DNA of 32,000 bases from Propionibacteriaceae bacterium (GCA_031256725.1 JAIRQE010000016.1:1-32000); one strand, 5' to 3'; counted from the stretch's first letter, positions 1-9,125 are shown. Numbers and translations are program-made. The notes: generated by a model not told the origin, from the letters alone.

Positions 1-137
1 CTTCATCGACAAACCACTCTTCACACTCCAACAGTCTTCCGCGCCCCATGGTTTCGCGGGCAAAAACATGTGATACACGGGCACCCACTACGCGGGCACA
101 TAATGTGATTGTCGTCGTCGTGTGTCCGCCAATGTGA

Positions 138-2940: not shown

Positions 2941-2951
2941 CGAAACAGCCC

Positions 2952-3023
2952 GGGCGGCTGGCGCAGCGGTAGCGCGCTTCCCTGACACGGAAGAGGTCAC
3001 TGGTTCGATCCCAGTGTCGCCCA
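2952..3023 (+). tRNA. tRNA-Val (anticodon GAC)
   Basis: Acceptor GGGCGGC/GTCGCCC, anticodon stem CTTCC/GGAAG with loop CTGACAC, T arm CACTGG-TTCGATC-CCAGTG region. 72 nt. Confidence 0.92.
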
Positions 3024-3031
3024 CGATTGAG

Positions 3032-3057
3032 GTGAATGAGTGCTTGCACTCATTCAC
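3032..3057 (+). other. perfect 12-2-12 inverted repeat (GTGAATGAGTGC tt GCACTCATTCAC) in the spacer between the two tRNA-Val genes
   Basis: Read directly from the sequence. No U-tract follows, so it is not a canonical terminator. It may be a processing or structural hairpin. Confidence 0.6.
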
Positions 3058-3068
3058 GAGGCTTGTGA

Positions 3069-3140
3069 GGGCGTATGGCGCAGCGGTAGCGCGCTTCGTT
3101 CACACCGAAGAGGTCACTGGTTCAAACCCAGTTACGCCCA
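3069..3140 (+). tRNA. tRNA-Val (anticodon CAC)
   Basis: Acceptor GGGCGTA/TACGCCC, anticodon stem CTTCG/CGAAG with loop TTCACAC, T arm with TTCAAAC loop. It is a near-duplicate of the Val-GAC gene. Confidence 0.92.
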
Positions 3141-3148
3141 CAAAGCCC

Positions 3149-3179
3149 AAAAGCCGACCACAAGGTCGGCTTTTGGTTT
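3149..3179. terminator. bidirectional intrinsic terminator (AAAAGCCGACC-acaa-GGTCGGCTTTT)
   Basis: An 11-bp stem (7-bp GC-rich core GCCGACC) is flanked by an A-run upstream and a T-run downstream, so it reads as hairpin plus U-tract on both strands. It lies between the end of the tRNA cluster (+) and the end of metB (-). Confidence 0.7.
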
Positions 3180-3284
3180 CTGTACGAAGACGACTCCCCA
3201 CAAAGCCTAAAAGCTGGCTGCTTGGACGAGCACCGATCAGATACATCAAAGATCATAGTGATATATAAATGTAATGTACCAACT

Positions 3285-4469
3285 TTATCTGTACGCCTTC
3301 TCTACTGCTTGGATGATGTCGGCAATGAGATCCTCGGGATCTTCTAGGCCGATAGCTAGGCGTACAAGCTTGTCAGGGGCAGGATTAGTCGTGGAAGCCA
3401 TGGAGGCGTGGGTCATCGCGTAGGGGTACTCAATCAGTGACTCTGCGGCGCCGAGGGATGCTGCCAGTCTCAAGAGTTGGGTGCTTTCGGAGACCTTGCG
3501 GGCGAGTTCGGGGGAGTCCAACTCGAAGGAGATGACCCCACCAAATCCGCTCATCTGTCGGGCGGCAATGTCGTGCCCGGGGTGGGTGGGCAAACCTGGG
3601 TACCAAACCTGTGAGATCTGCGGTACCTCGGTGAGGGCTTCGGCGACTCTCTGGGCGGTAGCTGCGGATCTTTGTACCCGGACAACAAGGGTACGAAGGC
3701 CCCGATGAGCCAGCCAAGAATCGAAGGCTCCTGGTACTGAGCCAATTGCGTTCTGCCACCAACGGACCTCGTGGAGGACATCATCAGAGCCACTGAGGCC
3801 ATCATCGGGAAGGTGGAGGTCTGGTGCGAAGATGGCAGCACCTCCAACGTGATCAGAGTGGCCACCGATGTACTTTGTCGTCGAATGGATGACAATATCA
3901 GCACCCAATTCGATGGGCCGTTGGAAGACGGGGGTTGCGAAGGTGTTGTCAACGACAACCCATGCTCCGTACTCGTGGGCGACTGTGGAGAGGGCCTCGA
4001 TATCTGATAATTCTAGGAGGGGGTTGGAGGGGGTTTCGAGCCAGAGGACGCGAGCGTGGGTCTCCTCGAAGGCGGTGCGTACCTCATCCAAGTTCGCCAT
4101 GGAAACCCGATGGGTAGACCTACCTTCTCTCGGCAAAATCCAAGTAAACATCCGCCCTGTACCAGCGTACACATCATGCCCGCAAAGAATCGTGTCCCCA
4201 GGGCGGGTGAGGACGCGCACTAGGGTGTCCTCGGCATTTAGCCCTGAGGGAAAGGCGACGGCTCCAGCCCCAGATTCGAGGCTAGCTAAGGCTTCCTGGT
4301 AGCGGTCCCTCGTCGGATTTCCTGAGCGGGAGTAGTTGTACCGATCTGGTGCTCCTTCAATACCGTCGAGTTGAAAGGTTGATGCAAGAACAATGGGTGG
4401 TACAACGGCCCCGGTGAGGGGATCACTGGCTTGGCCGACTTGCACGGCTCGTGTCGAAAATCCTGGCAT
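3285..4469 (-). CDS. metB: PLP-dependent cystathionine gamma-synthase / gamma-lyase family enzyme (Cys/Met metabolism)
   Basis: 394-aa ORF with the Cys/Met-metabolism PLP family pattern, including the PLP-lysine block HSTTKYIGGHSD. Sequence alone cannot separate gamma-synthase from gamma-lyase activity. Confidence 0.88.
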   Translation of the reverse strand: MPGFSTRAVQVGQASDPLTGAVVPPIVLASTFQLDGIEGAPDRYNYSRSGNPTRDRYQEALASLESGAGAVAFPSGLNAEDTLVRVLTRPGDTILCGHDVYAGTGRMFTWILPREGRSTHRVSMANLDEVRTAFEETHARVLWLETPSNPLLELSDIEALSTVAHEYGAWVVVDNTFATPVFQRPIELGADIVIHSTTKYIGGHSDHVGGAAIFAPDLHLPDDGLSGSDDVLHEVRWWQNAIGSVPGAFDSWLAHRGLRTLVVRVQRSAATAQRVAEALTEVPQISQVWYPGLPTHPGHDIAARQMSGFGGVISFELDSPELARKVSESTQLLRLAASLGAAESLIEYPYAMTHASMASTTNPAPDKLVRLAIGLEDPEDLIADIIQAVEKAYR

Positions 4470-4532
4470 GAATCTCTTTCGTGTTCGGTGGGCGCACAGA
4501 TACGCCTAAAAGGTGTGGGGAGGGGTGTACAC

Positions 4533-4578
4533 GCGCAGGCCAGCAGATGGCAGAGATGCTTTGGTTAGCGGCCCGCGC
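4533..4578 (-). promoter_or_regulatory. RNA stem (4570-4578 pairs with 4533-4541; 9 bp including one G-U) whose 5' arm is the last four codons of the minus-strand mini-ORF
   Basis: Minus-strand GCGCGGGCC ... GGCCTGCGC, with a nested AGCA/TGCT helix in the 28-nt loop. It sits in the metB leader and is followed by the C-rich, G-free tract ACACCCCTCCCCACACC (plus coordinates 4512-4528). Confidence 0.4.
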
Positions 4579-4639
4579 ACAGCATTCGACCACAGCACAT
4601 GGCGGAACACATCGCCATTGGGATCTGGGTCGTACACAT
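4565..4639 (-). CDS. candidate Cys/Met-rich leader peptide MCTTQIPMAMCSAMCCGRMLCAGR upstream of metB
   Basis: 24 codons plus TAA, containing 5 Cys and 5 Met. In-frame alternative ATGs occur at 4618, 4612 and 4600. There is no SD, but a TANNNT hexamer (TAGCTT, plus coordinates 4647-4652) ends 7 nt before the ATG, which fits a leaderless start. The stop lies 95 nt upstream of the metB ATG. Confidence 0.45.
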   Translation of the reverse strand: MCTTQIPMAMCSAMCCGRMLCAGR

Positions 4640-4679
4640 GGGAAAGAAGCTACAGTTCCTTACCTAAGAAACCTAATTA

Positions 4680-4696
4680 GTCTCAATAATTGAGAC
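4680..4696. promoter_or_regulatory. 17-bp perfect palindrome GTCTCAAT-A-ATTGAGAC, candidate shared operator
   Basis: Read directly. It is centred in the AT-rich core between the two divergent mini-ORFs and sits just upstream of a possible plus-strand promoter (TAGACT 4700-4705, 18-nt spacer, TAATGT 4724-4729). Confidence 0.4.
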
Positions 4697-4778
4697 AAAT
4701 AGACTTTTTTGGTGAACTATGAGTAATGTAATGCCCCAGCTGGGAAAGCCAGTTGTTTCGCAATAGCTAGGAGGAGTC

Positions 4779-4826
4779 ATGGCCACAACCATGGTGAACA
4801 CCTTCTGCTGTTGTATGTGTATGTGA
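4779..4826 (+). CDS. candidate Cys/Met-rich leader peptide MATTMVNTFCCCMCM
   Basis: 15 codons plus TGA, preceded by AGGAGGAG (4769-4776). The last six codons are C C C M C M. It lies 145 nt upstream of the first gene of the methyltransferase/ABC operon. Confidence 0.6.
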   Translation: MATTMVNTFCCCMCM

Positions 4827-4900
4827 CGCGCTAGCTATTCAGAGCTAGGGGATGGTCCGATTCTGGGCTGTCTTGGTGAATGAGCCCGCGTCATTTTCTG
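4823..4900 (+). terminator. candidate attenuator: alternative pairings ending in a T-rich tract
   Basis: TGACGCG (4824-4830, containing the mini-ORF stop codon) is complementary to CGCGTCA (4887-4893). The same 3' segment can instead form the local hairpin AATGA-gcccgcg-TCATT (4879-4895). Both are followed by TTTTCTGTTG. A nested hairpin CTAGCT-attcag-AGCTAG sits at 4831-4848. Confidence 0.4.
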
Positions 4901-4971
4901 TTGTCATCCAACACATCCTCCCCGTTATTCTCGGGGAAAATATCACAATCATACAACAATAGGAGTTTATT

Positions 4972-5994
4972 ATGTCCACACGTCTGGAAACCTTCCAGAA
5001 CATCATCAACGGCCAAGGCGAAGGGTACCTCACCGCTGCCTGGAAGCATTTCGTTGGCGAGGAGTACGACCGTGCCCGCTTCGTCAAAGCACATGTCGAC
5101 TTCGTCCAGCAATGGGATTGGGACTGGGTCAAGATCAACCCACGAGCCAATTATTATGCAGAAACATGGGGTGCAAGTTACGACCCCACCAACTATGACA
5201 TCATGGTCCCAACCCTCGTTGAGGCTGCGATCACGAAGCCAAGCGATCTGTCCAAGATCGTCCCACTCAAGGCTCAGGACAACCCGATTCTTCGTGAAGA
5301 AATCGCCAGAGCCCGAGAAATCAAGCAGGCTTTCCCCGATCGTGCAGTGATCCAATCGGTCTTCTCGCCACTGGGTGTACTGCTCTTCTTGGCAGACATC
5401 CATCCCTTCCCGCCAGGTCCAGGTAGGGAAGCCAACGGCCCAGTCTCACTGACAGACCTGTTGGACACTGATCGAGCATTGACCCTCAAGGCTCTCGAAG
5501 CCATCACCGAGACCCTCAAGGACTATGTCATCGAACTATTGAAGCCAGTCGAAGAAGGTGGAGCCGGTCTCGACGGGATCTTCTATGCCGTCCTCGGATT
5601 ACCGTCAAAGAGCTTCATCCCCAAGGACAAGTTCGACCAGTTGTCCACCCCATTCGACTTGGGTGTCCTTGAAGCCGCCAAGGGTTCAGCTGTGGTCTTC
5701 CACACATGTTCAATGGACTCTCATCCTGATTGGTTCACTCAGTGGCCATTGAGTGCATTGCAATGGGATCAATTCCTTGACGGAAACCCCGATATTACAA
5801 CCGATCTGGGTGTGATCCCGGTGGGTGGACCCGAGGCTCGCCTGTTTGAAGAAGGGCAAGACCTTGACCTTCTCCAAGAGCAGTTGGCCCGTACCCTCGA
5901 ACAGCGTCAGGGCAAGCCGTTCCTGCTCGCTTCAAGCTGCTCTTTGCCGCTGCATACATCCGATGAAGCCCTCGAGATCCTCAGCAAAGCCTGA
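4972..5994 (+). CDS. uroporphyrinogen-decarboxylase-fold (MtaA/MtbA/CmuA-like) putative zinc-dependent thiol methyltransferase
   Basis: 340-aa ORF with AGGAG 6-7 nt upstream. The overall length and pattern fit the URO-D family. It carries His244-x-Cys246-x76-Cys323 (FHTCS ... ASSCSLP), the H-x-C-xn-C zinc-thiolate signature of corrinoid:thiol methyltransferases and MetE-like enzymes. Confidence 0.55.
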   Translation: MSTRLETFQNIINGQGEGYLTAAWKHFVGEEYDRARFVKAHVDFVQQWDWDWVKINPRANYYAETWGASYDPTNYDIMVPTLVEAAITKPSDLSKIVPLKAQDNPILREEIARAREIKQAFPDRAVIQSVFSPLGVLLFLADIHPFPPGPGREANGPVSLTDLLDTDRALTLKALEAITETLKDYVIELLKPVEEGGAGLDGIFYAVLGLPSKSFIPKDKFDQLSTPFDLGVLEAAKGSAVVFHTCSMDSHPDWFTQWPLSALQWDQFLDGNPDITTDLGVIPVGGPEARLFEEGQDLDLLQEQLARTLEQRQGKPFLLASSCSLPLHTSDEALEILSKA

Positions 5995-6014
5995 AACACA
6001 GAAAAGAGAAGAAA

Positions 6015-7166
6015 ATGAAAAAGAAAACACTCGCATCCCTTGTTATAGGTTTGGCCTTTGCTCTGAGCGCCTGCGCAGGACAGGGCGATCAGACGCAGAC
6101 AACTGACCAGGCCCAAGACTCTCCAGTGACCTTTGGGGTGATCTATCCTAAGACTGGTTCCTATGCAGAATATGGCCGTCTGTTCGAACAGGGTCTAGAA
6201 CTCGCAGTGGAGAAGGTGAACACTGATGGTGGAATCCATGGTCGCGACCTGAAACTGAAGTACTTTGATACTCAGTCCGATCCGAAGCAAGCAGCAGCGG
6301 TCGCGCCCAAACTCGTTGTTGATCCAGAGATTATCGTCGTCCTTGGTGACTATTCTTCTTCCTCATCGAAGGCGGCCTCACCAGCATTCCAGCAGGCGGG
6401 TTTGGTTCACTACGGATTCAACAACTCGGCCACAGACTTCCCGTCAACTGGTGACCATGTGTGGTCCCCGAGTTTTGGTACAGACTCCCTGATGCCAGTA
6501 TGGGCAGACGCTATCGCTGATACTGGCGCGAAGACAGTTTCGGTGATCTATATCGAAAATGACTGGGGTTTGCAGGCCTACGATTATTTCGCAGACCACA
6601 TCAAGACTCTTGGAGTCGAGATCGTCTACACCTCAGCCTACCCTGCGACACCAACTGATGATTATTCACCCATCCTCATCAAGGCTCGCGATGCCAAGGC
6701 GGATGCGATCGTACAGATTGGTTATGCCGAAGGTGCTCAGATTGTCAACACCCTTCGTGACACTCTCGGCTATAAAGGTCCCTTCTATGGTGGTCAGAGG
6801 ACTCCAGAGTTCTTGGATATCGCAGGCAAGAATGCTGAAGGATCGATCCTGAATGGACACTTCTCGAACGAAACAACTGTGCCTAGGGTTCAGGAGTTCT
6901 TGGCTGACTTCCGTGCAGCTTATGGAGTGGATCCGGGTGACTTCAATCTTTCTGCTTACCAGGCGGTGATTGACCTTGCCTATGGGATCAATAAGACTTC
7001 TCCCACTCGTGAGGGAGTGCAAGAAGCCCTACAAACAGTGACCGATTTTCCTGCCTATATTGGTCAGGCCGACACCTTCGCTTTCGATCAGGAAACCCGT
7101 CGACTCCTTGATCCGAAGCCCGGGCTTGTCATCGTTGAAGATGGCGAATTCAAACCATACAACTGA
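6015..7166 (+). CDS. ABC transporter substrate-binding lipoprotein, LivK/branched-chain-amino-acid (Peripla_BP_6) family
   Basis: 383 aa. The signal peptide has the lipobox LSAC (MKKKTLASLVIGLAFALSAC). The type I periplasmic-binding-protein pattern is present (FGVIYPKTGSYAEYG..., GDYSSSSS). Confidence 0.85.
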   Translation: MKKKTLASLVIGLAFALSACAGQGDQTQTTDQAQDSPVTFGVIYPKTGSYAEYGRLFEQGLELAVEKVNTDGGIHGRDLKLKYFDTQSDPKQAAAVAPKLVVDPEIIVVLGDYSSSSSKAASPAFQQAGLVHYGFNNSATDFPSTGDHVWSPSFGTDSLMPVWADAIADTGAKTVSVIYIENDWGLQAYDYFADHIKTLGVEIVYTSAYPATPTDDYSPILIKARDAKADAIVQIGYAEGAQIVNTLRDTLGYKGPFYGGQRTPEFLDIAGKNAEGSILNGHFSNETTVPRVQEFLADFRAAYGVDPGDFNLSAYQAVIDLAYGINKTSPTREGVQEALQTVTDFPAYIGQADTFAFDQETRRLLDPKPGLVIVEDGEFKPYN

Positions 7167-7268: not shown

Positions 7269-9125
7269 ATGATTGACACACTTATTGCCGGACTCCTTCA
7301 CGGAAACATCTACGCTCTCATCGCCGTGGGGATGTCCCTGATTTTCGGCGTGACACACGTCGCCAACTTTGCTCATGGGTCCATCTTCGCCATTGGTACC
7401 ATGCTGGGTTGGTTCCTGGGAGCCCAATTGGGATGGGGGATCATCCCAACTCTTGCAGCTGTCATCGTCATCACATCACTGCTTGGCTGGATCATTTCTG
7501 TACTCGTCGTAGGCCCCCTCGCACAGGGTCCACCGATCGCTGCCCTTCTAGCCACGATAGCTGTGGCGATGATCCTCGACGCACTCTCCCAGGTGATTTT
7601 CACTCCCGTGACACGCAAATTCCCCGAATTGCTTCCCACTCACAATCTTCAACTCGGTGGAGTCCACTTTGGTACTTCCTCTGTCGTCATGCTCATCGTC
7701 ACAATAGTCTCCATGGCTGCCCTGTGGGCCTTCCTTCGTTTCGGGAAGCTAGGTCAGGCTATTCGTGCAACGGCCCAAGACTCGGATTCGGCCAAGCAGG
7801 TCGGGATTCCGGTCGAAAGGATTCGCCACCTCTCCTTCATCATCGCTTCCGGCCTTGGGGGTATGGCTGGGATCTTCATGGGATTGTTCAACTCAACGAT
7901 CAATCCTTCCACTGGTGCCATCGCTGGCCTGACCGCATTCGTGGCAGCAACAATTGGTGGATTGGGATCCATGCCCGGTGCTGTCCTTGGTGGGCTCCTT
8001 CTTGGAGTAACGGAAGCCTTTGGTGTGTACTTCCTAGGCGGCTCCTATCGTGACATCATCATCTTTGGTGCTCTGGTTCTCATCCTCCTTCTGCGTCCAG
8101 CCGGGTTGGTTGGCAAGAAACTGGCAATTGAAACAGAGCCTATGACTCGTACCTTCCTTGGAGGTACACGCCCAATCCAGTTGCCATGGTTCGGCAACCT
8201 GGCTCTCATCGCTGGCCTAGCATTCATCCCGATCCTCTTTGGCCCTCAAATGGGCTCAGTTATCGCTGGTGTTGGTACCCAGGTTTTCGCGTACGCCATC
8301 GCAGCAATCGGGTTAACCATCATTGCTGGAGGTACAGGCCAGATTATTCTCGGCCAAGCTGGTGCAGTGGCTATGGGCGCCTATGGTTCAGCACTCCTAT
8401 CGGTTCACTATGGGTGGCCCTTCCTTGTCACCATCATTGCTGGGGCACTGATCGCTGCTGTGATCTGTTCGATTTTGATCTTCCCAGCATGGAAACTTTC
8501 AGGTCATTACGTGGCTATTGCCACGATTGGTGTGGGTTTCATCACAGTGGCCTTACTCAAGGTTTTAGAGCCCATCACCCGTGGTGTCAACGGAGTCTAT
8601 GGGATTCCTTATCCGGCAATCTTCGGTCTGCAGATCACCGATATTCGGGGGATCTACTGGGTGAATCTGGTTCTGATGGGGATTACCCTATTGCTCGTCA
8701 CAAAGATCATGGCCTCCCATCTCGGGAAGACTATTTCATCGATTGGTGCCGATCCGGTTGCGGCTGCATCCTTGGGTATCCGTGTCACTGGGTACAAGGG
8801 GTTGGCTTATGCCATCTCCGCATTCTTTGCAGGTCTTGCGGGGGCTCTGCTAGCCCATCAGTACACCTACATTGAGCCAGGTCAGTTCGATTTGAATATG
8901 TCAACAGTACTTCTGGCGATCATCGTGTTGGGTGGATTGCGTTCACCATTGGGTGCTGTCCTGGGGGCGATCATACTTCTGGGGGTACCAGAATTACTGA
9001 GAACCATCTTTGAAGACATCACCTGGTTTGTCTCCATCTTCCCCCATGCGCGCATCATCGTCTATGGACTGACCCTTATCCTCATCATCCGCTTCCGCCC
9101 GCAGGGCCTCTTCCAAAGGAGCTAG
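7269..9125 (+). CDS. fused LivH-LivM type ABC permease (branched-chain amino acid transporter family)
   Basis: 618-aa polytopic membrane ORF. The first ~290 aa are LivH-like and the remainder is LivM-like, in a single continuous frame. Confidence 0.85.
   Translation: MIDTLIAGLLHGNIYALIAVGMSLIFGVTHVANFAHGSIFAIGTMLGWFLGAQLGWGIIPTLAAVIVITSLLGWIISVLVVGPLAQGPPIAALLATIAVAMILDALSQVIFTPVTRKFPELLPTHNLQLGGVHFGTSSVVMLIVTIVSMAALWAFLRFGKLGQAIRATAQDSDSAKQVGIPVERIRHLSFIIASGLGGMAGIFMGLFNSTINPSTGAIAGLTAFVAATIGGLGSMPGAVLGGLLLGVTEAFGVYFLGGSYRDIIIFGALVLILLLRPAGLVGKKLAIETEPMTRTFLGGTRPIQLPWFGNLALIAGLAFIPILFGPQMGSVIAGVGTQVFAYAIAAIGLTIIAGGTGQIILGQAGAVAMGAYGSALLSVHYGWPFLVTIIAGALIAAVICSILIFPAWKLSGHYVAIATIGVGFITVALLKVLEPITRGVNGVYGIPYPAIFGLQITDIRGIYWVNLVLMGITLLLVTKIMASHLGKTISSIGADPVAAASLGIRVTGYKGLAYAISAFFAGLAGALLAHQYTYIEPGQFDLNMSTVLLAIIVLGGLRSPLGAVLGAIILLGVPELLRTIFEDITWFVSIFPHARIIVYGLTLILIIRFRPQGLFQRS

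Follow-up and report, generated by a model that had tools for sequence, protein, structure and literature searches.

Leader peptides that contain cysteine (Cys) codon runs near their stop codons, and that lack terminators, were predicted for Mycobacterium, P. acnes and B. longum cbs by Seliverstov et al. 2005 (PMC1262725), who proposed Rho-dependent termination at pyrimidine-rich sites for the actinobacterial Cys leaders. Canestrari et al. 2020 (10.1101/834739) showed cysteine-responsive attenuation of downstream genes by polycysteine leaderless short open reading frames (sORFs) in M. smegmatis; one locus (Ms5788A) acts via Shine-Dalgarno (SD) pairing, and the mechanism at the other loci was left open. 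Here we describe a mini-ORF rich in Cys and methionine (Met) codons in a 32,000-nucleotide (nt) stretch of DNA, hereafter the window, from an uncultured Propionibacteriaceae bacterium (GCA_031256725.1 JAIRQE010000016.1:1-32000; G+C ~54%). It lies upstream of a metB-like gene, and comparison with related genomes indicates that it is a real, conserved, probably leaderless and structured leader ORF of a transsulfuration gene. Its heavy Cys/Met loading, with three in-frame AUGUGY copies, is lineage-specific and parallels the conserved Cys run in the leader of the operon that diverges from metB. We give about even chances to the idea that a ribosome-mediated, Cys/Met-responsive attenuator controls the cystathionine gamma-synthase/lyase-type gene, with the mini-ORF as its leader peptide gene.

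The first-pass annotation of this DNA had described, 95 nt upstream of metB, an ORF of 24 codons with five Cys and five Met, lacking an SD and preceded by a TANNNT hexamer that ends 7 nt before the ATG, together with a stem at the last codons and a G-free, C-rich tract beyond it. All of these features are present in the sequence (Table 1), with the stem reaching 11 bp between arms 4578-4568 and 4544-4533 and the C-rich tract running from 4528 to 4512. Inspection of the sequence ahead of the ATG found no SD, and since the -10-like hexamer ends 7 nt upstream, transcription probably starts at, or adjoining, the A of the ATG. Among the 282 ATG-initiated ORFs of 12-60 codons that the window contains when read in its six frames, the mini-ORF ranks second for Cys fraction and for Cys+Met fraction, and the first rank on both measures belongs to mini-ORF1, the leader of the divergent operon. 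The Cys/Met composition of the mini-ORF lies beyond chance. The Met-Cys hexamer ATGTGY has three in-frame copies in a 45-nt span of the mini-ORF, as against 30 in 64 kb (both strands). Apart from one ORF at the left edge, the window contains no further intergenic Cys-rich ORF. This small left-edge ORF (MCPRSGCPCITCFCPRNHGARKTVGV, 21-101, minus strand; 26 codons, five of them Cys) is divergent to argG and heads out of the window, where its downstream gene lies, and it has neither an SD nor the TANNNT + 7 nt geometry.

Searches of a large protein collection found metB orthologues 63-72% identical to the window's protein, and contigs carrying eight metB orthologues and three orthologues of the first protein of the divergent operon (URO-D-like) were taken for comparison (labelled L007-L034). 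A total of six homologous leaders emerged, that of the window and those of five other Propionibacteriaceae metagenome lineages, lying ahead of metB-like genes or of a PALP-metB operon. Between the window and L009, blastn aligns a block of 36/45 nt (E = 1e-4) at an equal position relative to metB. The spacing of TANNNT, exactly 7 nt and ATG or GTG recurs in five of the six leaders (TAGCTT in the window and L030, TAATTT in L009, TATACT in L017 and L010), and the L010 site was also recovered by a promoter scan. The metB orthologues in L007, L012, L014, L015 and L016 have no such leader. The comparison suggested in the first-pass annotation, for the same ORF and stem ahead of metB orthologues, gave homologous leaders in five other lineages, with the stop in or adjoining the hairpin in L009 and L033. 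Species-representative genomes searched with the metB protein held metB relatives of at most 51% identity, none with the leader, and a descriptor search for extra copies of the leader found none in the window or in the 34 loci compared. The degenerate pattern GGNCGNATGCTNTGYGCNGNNCGNTRA gave 12 matches in a metagenome collection, all of them chance occurrences inside unrelated sequence, and these were discarded. Plus-strand ORFs over the mini-ORF region show, when the window and L030 are compared by eye, no more conservation than the nucleotides themselves; that comparison gave no coding signature, and a coding antisense ORF was dropped.

Comparison of the leaders shows that the ORF RNA folds into a small architecture in which a helix P1 encloses a hairpin P2, followed by a conserved core and, at the end of the ORF, a hairpin B. 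P1 begins at nt 8 counted from the ATG or GTG, and 31 of its 32 pairs in the window, L030, L009 and L017 are standard, compared with 7-17 of 32 when the registers are slid by 1-3 nt. Its positions 12-15 covary, changing from C-G/C-G/A-U/G-C to U.G/G-C/G-C/A-U and to A-U/G-C/C-G/U-A, and RNAalifold applied to an unguided MAFFT alignment also recovers the helix. P2 is identical in L009, keeps its pairing through wobbles in L030 (GUGGCG/CGCCGU) and shows a compensatory change in L033 (AUGGCC/GGCCAU). In-frame CGA-AUG, inside the core, is the sole codon feature common to all six leaders, with a Cys codon one or two codons ahead of it in four. Hairpin B pairs GCGCGGGCC(GC) with (GC-U-)GGCCUGCGC in both the minimum free energy (MFE) and the centroid structures, forming 11 bp with one G.U and one bulge, and the UAA stop (4565-4567) directly follows its 5' arm. 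It is held in three leaders (GCGGG..CCUGC in the window, GCGGA..UCCGC at the equivalent position in L009 and L033), and the changes between the window and the other two turn a G-C into an A-U pair, which is compensatory, and a G.U into a G-C. Because the folding energy of the whole leader is unexceptional (z = -1.5), the case for structure rests on the relatives and not on energy. Broad and narrow Rfam scans of the window (3000-6500 and 4440-4700) and of L033 (100-460) gave no relevant match at E <= 10 to a covariance model of the known riboswitch and RNA families, including SAM-I, -II, -III, -IV, -VI, SAM/SAH, T-box and others.

Table 1. Features of the metB leader region and its surroundings, with the homologous leaders
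Feature	Coordinates	Strand	Basis or remark
Mini-ORF MCTTQIPMAMCSAMCCGRMLCAGR, 24 codons + stop, putatively leaderless	4565-4639	-	Translation; 5 Cys + 5 Met
-10-like hexamer TAGCTT (TANNNT)	4647-4652	-	Followed by 7 nt (ctttccc), then mini-ORF ATG at 4639
P1 5' arm CGACCCAG, transcript nt 8-15, codons 3-5	4625-4632	-	MFE, RNAalifold, covariation
P1 3' arm CUG-U-GGUCG, nt 45-53	4587-4595	-	Overlaps Cys15, Cys16, Gly17, Arg18
P2 hairpin (hairpin A), AUGGCG/CGCCAU, nested in P1	4599-4618	-	MFE
Conserved core GUCGAAUGC with in-frame CGA-AUG (Arg18-Met19)	4582-4590	-	All six leaders; GACGAAUGC in L010
Hairpin B, 5' arm 4568-4578 (codons 21-24), 3' arm 4533-4544	4533-4578	-	~-22 kcal/mol
G-free C-rich tract ACACCCCUCCCCACACC (= ACACCCCTCCCCACACC), possible Rho loading site	4512-4528	-	Composition
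SD-like GAAAGAGA ahead of metB-like ATG	4473-4480	-	Read from sequence
metB ATG	4469	-	95 nt past mini-ORF stop
metB-like gene, Cys/Met-metabolism pyridoxal phosphate (PLP) enzyme (cystathionine gamma-synthase/lyase family)	3285-4469	-	394 aa; PF01053 E = 3e-122
Perfect 17-bp palindrome GTCTCAAT-T-ATTGAGAC	4680-4696	strandless	Centre ~49 nt upstream of the ATG of the minus-strand mini-ORF (mini-ORF2)
Mini-ORF1 MATTMVNTFCCCMCM + stop	4779-4826	+	SD-led (AGGAGG); leader of the divergent URO-D-like/Liv-type ATP-binding cassette (ABC) operon
URO-D-like protein (100% identical to NCBI protein with locus tag LBG99_05335)	4972-5994	+	First gene, divergent operon
Liv-type substrate-binding protein	6015-7166	+	Divergent operon
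Fused permease	7269-9125	+	Divergent operon
L030 leader MLTTQMFVAPCSAVSCGRM..			Nearest relative, contig end cuts ORF; same divergent layout, URO-D-like protein 72% identical
L009 leader MSMTGRFFMASSNSAISGRMLCADR + stop			Upstream of metB-like gene
L017 leader MFSTATATMMRGQFVLSACRMR + stop			Upstream of PALP (CysK/CBS-like)-metB operon
L033/L034 leader ..MAPPGAAMSCCRML + stop			
L010/L011 leader MFSTDSMTTICRCRMPSA + stop			TGA where L017 has TGT

Several loci show how this leader may be altered or replaced. In the L010 leader (2796-2864), which looks like a decaying copy, the TGA stands directly ahead of the conserved CGA-AUG and three P1 pairs are broken; a new C-R-M (UGU CGC AUG) lies five codons upstream, and the sequence is identical in two independent samples (L011). 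In L007, a sister of L009, the same promoter (TACTTT + 7 nt + ATG) precedes a 10-codon leaderless ORF, MIIERDLQAS (2950-3003), whose TGA overlaps the metB ATG (ATGA), an arrangement suggesting that translational coupling replaces the long leader there. Codons 3-12 of the L009 leader (ATGACTGGAAGATTCTTCATGGCGAGC, 2822-2852) resemble the start of its own metB (ATGACTGGTTTCTCCACCCGAGCC, 3001-3027; shuffle p = 0.003), which hints at a local duplication. An origin of the mini-ORF by duplication of the metB 5' end was nevertheless rejected, as the resemblance is significant in L009 and not in the other four leaders tested.

The peptide and its Cys and Met codons are kept far less well than the RNA pairs. 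The leaders hold between one and five Cys codons (five in the window, two among the first 18 codons of L030, one each in L009 and L017, two each in L033 and L010), so that the Cys codons do not prove conserved across relatives. Consecutive Cys codons occur in the window (Cys15-Cys16) and in L033 (CC); since they are absent from L030, L009, L017 and L010, the pair is lineage-specific within the leader family. Cys15 and Cys16 also serve as nucleotides of the P1 3' arm; L009 has Ser codons in these columns, with compensating changes in the 5' arm. Two Met codons of the window form the arms of P2, and L030 has GUG in place of each. On the other hand, every difference between the window and L030 that touches a Cys or a Met codon makes an AUGUGY, and these gains, together with the ending of mini-ORF1 (..AUGUGUAUGUGA), suggest that Met-Cys codons have been directionally enriched in the window's lineage. 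The R-M pair is the invariant part of the peptide, with Arg always encoded by CGA, and the C-terminal tails before the stop vary (LCAGR, L, R). An arrest peptide built on 'S-A..C-R-M' was dropped, given that S-A is not positionally homologous across subfamilies and that the flanking codons covary as RNA. The M-x-T-T start shared by the two mini-ORFs of the intergenic region is not a common peptide motif: in the family of the mini-ORF it stems from the P1 5' arm, (A/U)CGAC, and in the mini-ORF1 family it is not kept (MATT, MAHT, MNHT, MMNL).

If the mini-ORF encodes the leader peptide of an attenuator, a transcript starting at the AUG would be translated without an SD, like actinobacterial 5'-AUG/GUG transcripts, and its RNA would fold, as the comparison shows, into P1 enclosing P2, then the core, then hairpin B ending at the stop. 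With Cys-tRNA and Met-tRNA plentiful, the ribosome would run through and depart, allowing P1 and B to form. When they are scarce, the ribosome would linger at Cys15, Cys16, Met19 and Cys21, codons that cluster from the P1 3' arm through the core to the B 5' arm, and by blocking hairpin B it would alter the fate of the downstream RNA. Slow translation has one clear structural effect: with its A site anywhere from codon 17 to codon 25, a ribosome sits over the B 5' arm. When B forms, the output step would most likely be terminator-independent, Rho-type premature termination, or the untranslated C-rich spacer would be lost. Past the mini-ORF stop, 36 nt precede the C-rich tract, the window spacer has a C/G ratio of 1.89 with its best 40-nt stretch at the 99.3rd percentile of the strand, and all five complete leaders have more C than G between the ORF and the downstream gene (C/G 1.2-2.2), a composition consistent with Rho.

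A more novel reading, which we regard as improbable, is a two-input device or a new class of structured RNA, with P1, P2, the core and hairpin B as a conserved fold that would regulate transsulfuration genes. In the two-input version, early Met codons in or near P1 and P2 and late Cys codons in the P1 3' arm and the B 5' arm would give opposite or combined responses to methionine and cysteine shortage, a logic that would suit an enzyme using up Cys for the synthesis of Met. In the structured-class version, the fold would bind a ligand or factor directly and the ORF would merely tune it. We know of no methionine-codon leader peptide in bacteria, and none was found in the literature searched.

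Several results weigh against Cys/Met-responsive attenuation. The number and position of Cys codons vary strongly among the leaders, the Cys15-Cys16 pair is missing from L009 and L017, and UG-rich pairing could have given rise to the Cys and Met codons as by-products, since some of them overlap helix arms. A test of reading-frame openness does not favour frame 1, L010 has an in-frame TGA ahead of the core, and the family consists of only six sequences, one truncated and one apparently decaying. As for the output, no intrinsic terminator was found by scanning the minus strand of 4300-5100, and no U-tract follows hairpin B. A consensus scan likewise found none in L009, L010, L017 or L033, which rules out an intrinsic terminator as the output in the window and in these four homologues; L017 has a branched stem of -15 kcal/mol followed by UUUUUCUCUC. 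A ribosome was modelled by constrained folding, in the window at Cys2, Cys11, Cys15, Cys16, Cys21 and the stop, and in each of the five leaders at the core AUG (Met19) and two codons earlier; none of these positions consistently altered the accessibility of the SD and start region. For the window SD..AUG, the predicted accessibility is 0.53-0.63 whatever the ribosome position, and the window's Cys codons pair within P1; an SD-sequestration switch of the Ms5788A type finds no support in these folds and was rejected for the five leaders. Most modelled positions also leave the C-rich tract predicted single-stranded, so that a switch acting on that tract is not evident either. Finally, P1 (as 1:2) and hairpin B (as 3:4) are backed by covariation, and a 2:3 pairing that would oppose B (GUGGUC with GGGCCGC, kept in L009) has just 6 bp, two of them wobbles; no constrained fold lets it displace B, and it is too weak to claim as an antiterminator. 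The original proposal of cysteine-sensing attenuation thus stands in part: the leader is conserved, and the idea of a terminator-less, possibly Rho-dependent Cys leader peptide agrees with the published actinobacterial predictions and the M. smegmatis experiments, but the lack of conserved Cys codons weakens a Cys-only sensor acting through Rho.

The main rival reads the same observations as signs of a structured cis-regulatory RNA, a riboswitch-like or protein-binding leader for transsulfuration genes, in which P1, P2, the core and hairpin B are the conserved entity and the ORF and its Cys/Met richness are incidental to UG-rich helices. We consider this unlikely, although the covariation backs RNA helices and not peptide conservation, the core is kept at the nucleotide level even past a stop in L010 and conservation in L033 extends beyond its stop, and the frame test does not discriminate. 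The Cys15-Cys16 codons replaced with compensation in L009 and the P2-arm Met codons that are GUG in L030 would fit it as well. However, no Rfam family matches even in permissive narrow scans, the helices are short and the whole leader is not unusually stable, and Actinobacteria are expected to translate a 5'-terminal RUG at a fixed distance from a -10 hexamer (10.1101/834739), which five of the six leaders have. The way AUGUGY has accumulated in this lineage, in both of the genome's leaders, would also be hard to put down to structure alone. That the region is a chance ORF without function is extremely unlikely: short ORFs are common (the 282 noted above) and the folding z-score is modest, but position and sequence are conserved in five other lineages, the helices covary, the promoter geometry is conserved and the extreme composition is common to a neighbouring conserved leader.

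Translation without amino-acid sensing would account for the range of Cys/Met content across the leader family. A leaderless upstream ORF might set basal metB expression through, for instance, mRNA protection, ribosome delivery or reinitiation, or polarity, and would be a promoter-proximal remnant; leader genes have reportedly been proposed to boost translation in Actinobacteria. The Cys-free ORF driven by the same promoter in L007, and the resemblance of the 5' part of the L009 ORF to its own metB 5' end, would sit well with such a role. It is distinctly improbable all the same, since it leaves unexplained the conserved P1, P2 and B architecture, the universal CGA-AUG, and the first- and second-ranked Cys/Met loading of two leaders beside Cys/Met genes. 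A further possibility, which we judge highly unlikely, is an arrest peptide of the TnaC/SpeFL type, whose C-terminal ..C-(G)-R-M-L.. would sense Met, S-adenosylmethionine, homocysteine or Cys, stall near the stop and shield the RNA from Rho. The mini-ORF has the same number of codons as TnaC, its invariant R-M with a constant CGA lies near the C-terminus, the stop is embedded in a hairpin followed by a C-rich spacer, and a Rho-type mechanism has been proposed for actinobacterial Cys leaders by analogy with tna (PMC1262725). Against this, only two or three residues are conserved, the residues flanking R-M covary as RNA, the C-terminal tails differ and L010 ends ahead of the motif, and the C-rich tract, 36 nt past the stop, lies outside a ribosome footprint.

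Both mini-ORFs lie in one intergenic region of 502 bp (4470-4971), from which the metB-like gene and the plus-strand operon diverge. Homologues of mini-ORF1 (MAHTVTRTSWRCLCLCL, MNHTMMPTSCCCICL and MMNLMTPTSCCCMCL) are found upstream of orthologous operons (L030 197-250, L031 ~2792-2840, L032 ~2220-2268), and their Cys run is kept in all four lineages (..FCCCMCM, ..SWRCLCLCL, ..SCCCICL, ..SCCCMCL), which makes Cys-codon sensing plausible in this organism. A conserved UGACGCGCUAGC..GCUAGG always lies 3' of mini-ORF1, and in the window AAUAGCUAG, adjoining the mini-ORF1 SD, is the exact complement of CUAGCUAUU just past the stop. The URO-D-like protein is a weak member of its family (Pfam E = 6e-4) without an NCBIfam match, and its orthologues come from Propionibacteriaceae as well as from Bifidobacterium, Alloscardovia and Raineyella. 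That it goes with a Liv-type transporter and a Cys leader suggests that it plays a so far unrecognised part in the metabolism of sulfur amino acids. The palindrome between the divergent leaders is a candidate operator for a shared transcription factor; in L030, only GTCTCA of it is kept.

The top NCBIfam match of the metB-like protein is PRK07811, cystathionine gamma-synthase, with 474 bits, under the 513 cut-off. Its orthologues in L012, L015, L016 and L017 often have cysteine and sulfur genes as neighbours, such as PALP (CysK/CBS-like) and Hexapep (CysE-like), and further neighbours among these loci include ThiF/rhodanese with SrpI-like and cysteine desulfurase-like genes. In L010, the metB-like gene is convergent with a MetX-like hydrolase. 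These neighbourhoods make the direction of the reaction, gamma-synthase or gamma-lyase, uncertain. In the window, the strand opposite to the metB-like gene carries a tRNA gene (3069-3140, plus strand; Rfam 69.9 bits) ~145 nt past the gene's 3' end.

If Cys/Met-responsive attenuation is correct, ribosome-based cysteine sensing, the 'Cys ribulon' idea, would reach beyond mycobacteria and take in uncultured, probably gut-associated Propionibacteriaceae as well as the Cys/Met branch point, and two Cys leaders of different build, one SD-led and one leaderless, would act back to back in one intergenic region. The small, covariation-supported RNA architecture is directly testable, and could help answer whether terminator-less actinobacterial leaders use Rho, a question that dates from the 2005 prediction.

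Among the systems described in bacteria, tnaC and speFL share with the mini-ORF a short leader ORF (of 24 codons in TnaC as well), the absence of an intrinsic terminator and C-rich RNA past the ORF. They depend on conserved peptide residues and on a rut site directly beside the stop codon; in contrast, the mini-ORF peptide is poorly conserved and its C-rich tract lies 36 nt downstream. The trpL, hisL and ilvB attenuators resemble the leader in having regulatory codons in a first helix, to which P1 would correspond as 1:2, and a second hairpin governed by ribosome position. They differ in that the window has no U-tract terminator after hairpin B and no convincing antiterminator, and in that the mini-ORF is putatively leaderless with its stop inside the second hairpin. 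The mycobacterial polycysteine sORFs of the Cys ribulon (Ms5788A, Rv2334A and others) are likewise actinobacterial, unannotated and short, and lie without an SD at the transcript's 5' end, as the mini-ORF putatively does; they carry at least two consecutive Cys codons near the 3' end, where the mini-ORF has Cys15-Cys16 and three more, and lie upstream of, and co-oriented with, a sulfur amino-acid gene, as does the mini-ORF (PF01053; PALP-metB in L017). As in the mycobacterial Cys ribulon, several loci may respond together, given the second Cys-leader locus nearby. There is no sequence homology between them, however, and the mycobacterial Cys runs are conserved, unlike those of the mini-ORF family. 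The mini-ORF is also co-enriched in Met, has its regulatory codons in a covarying intra-ORF helix, has no predicted SD-masking duplex and would target a transsulfuration enzyme. The leaders predicted in PMC1262725 share with the mini-ORF its bacterial family (P. acnes) and its surroundings in the pathway (the cbs operon), and have Cys runs near the stop, no terminator hairpin and pyrimidine-rich spacers proposed as Rho sites, which is the model of the first-pass annotation; compared by description, they are not reported to have a covarying intra-ORF helix or an invariant CGA-AUG core. Taken together, the mini-ORF leader most likely joins the actinobacterial Cys-leader class that was predicted in 2005 and validated in mycobacteria in 2020.

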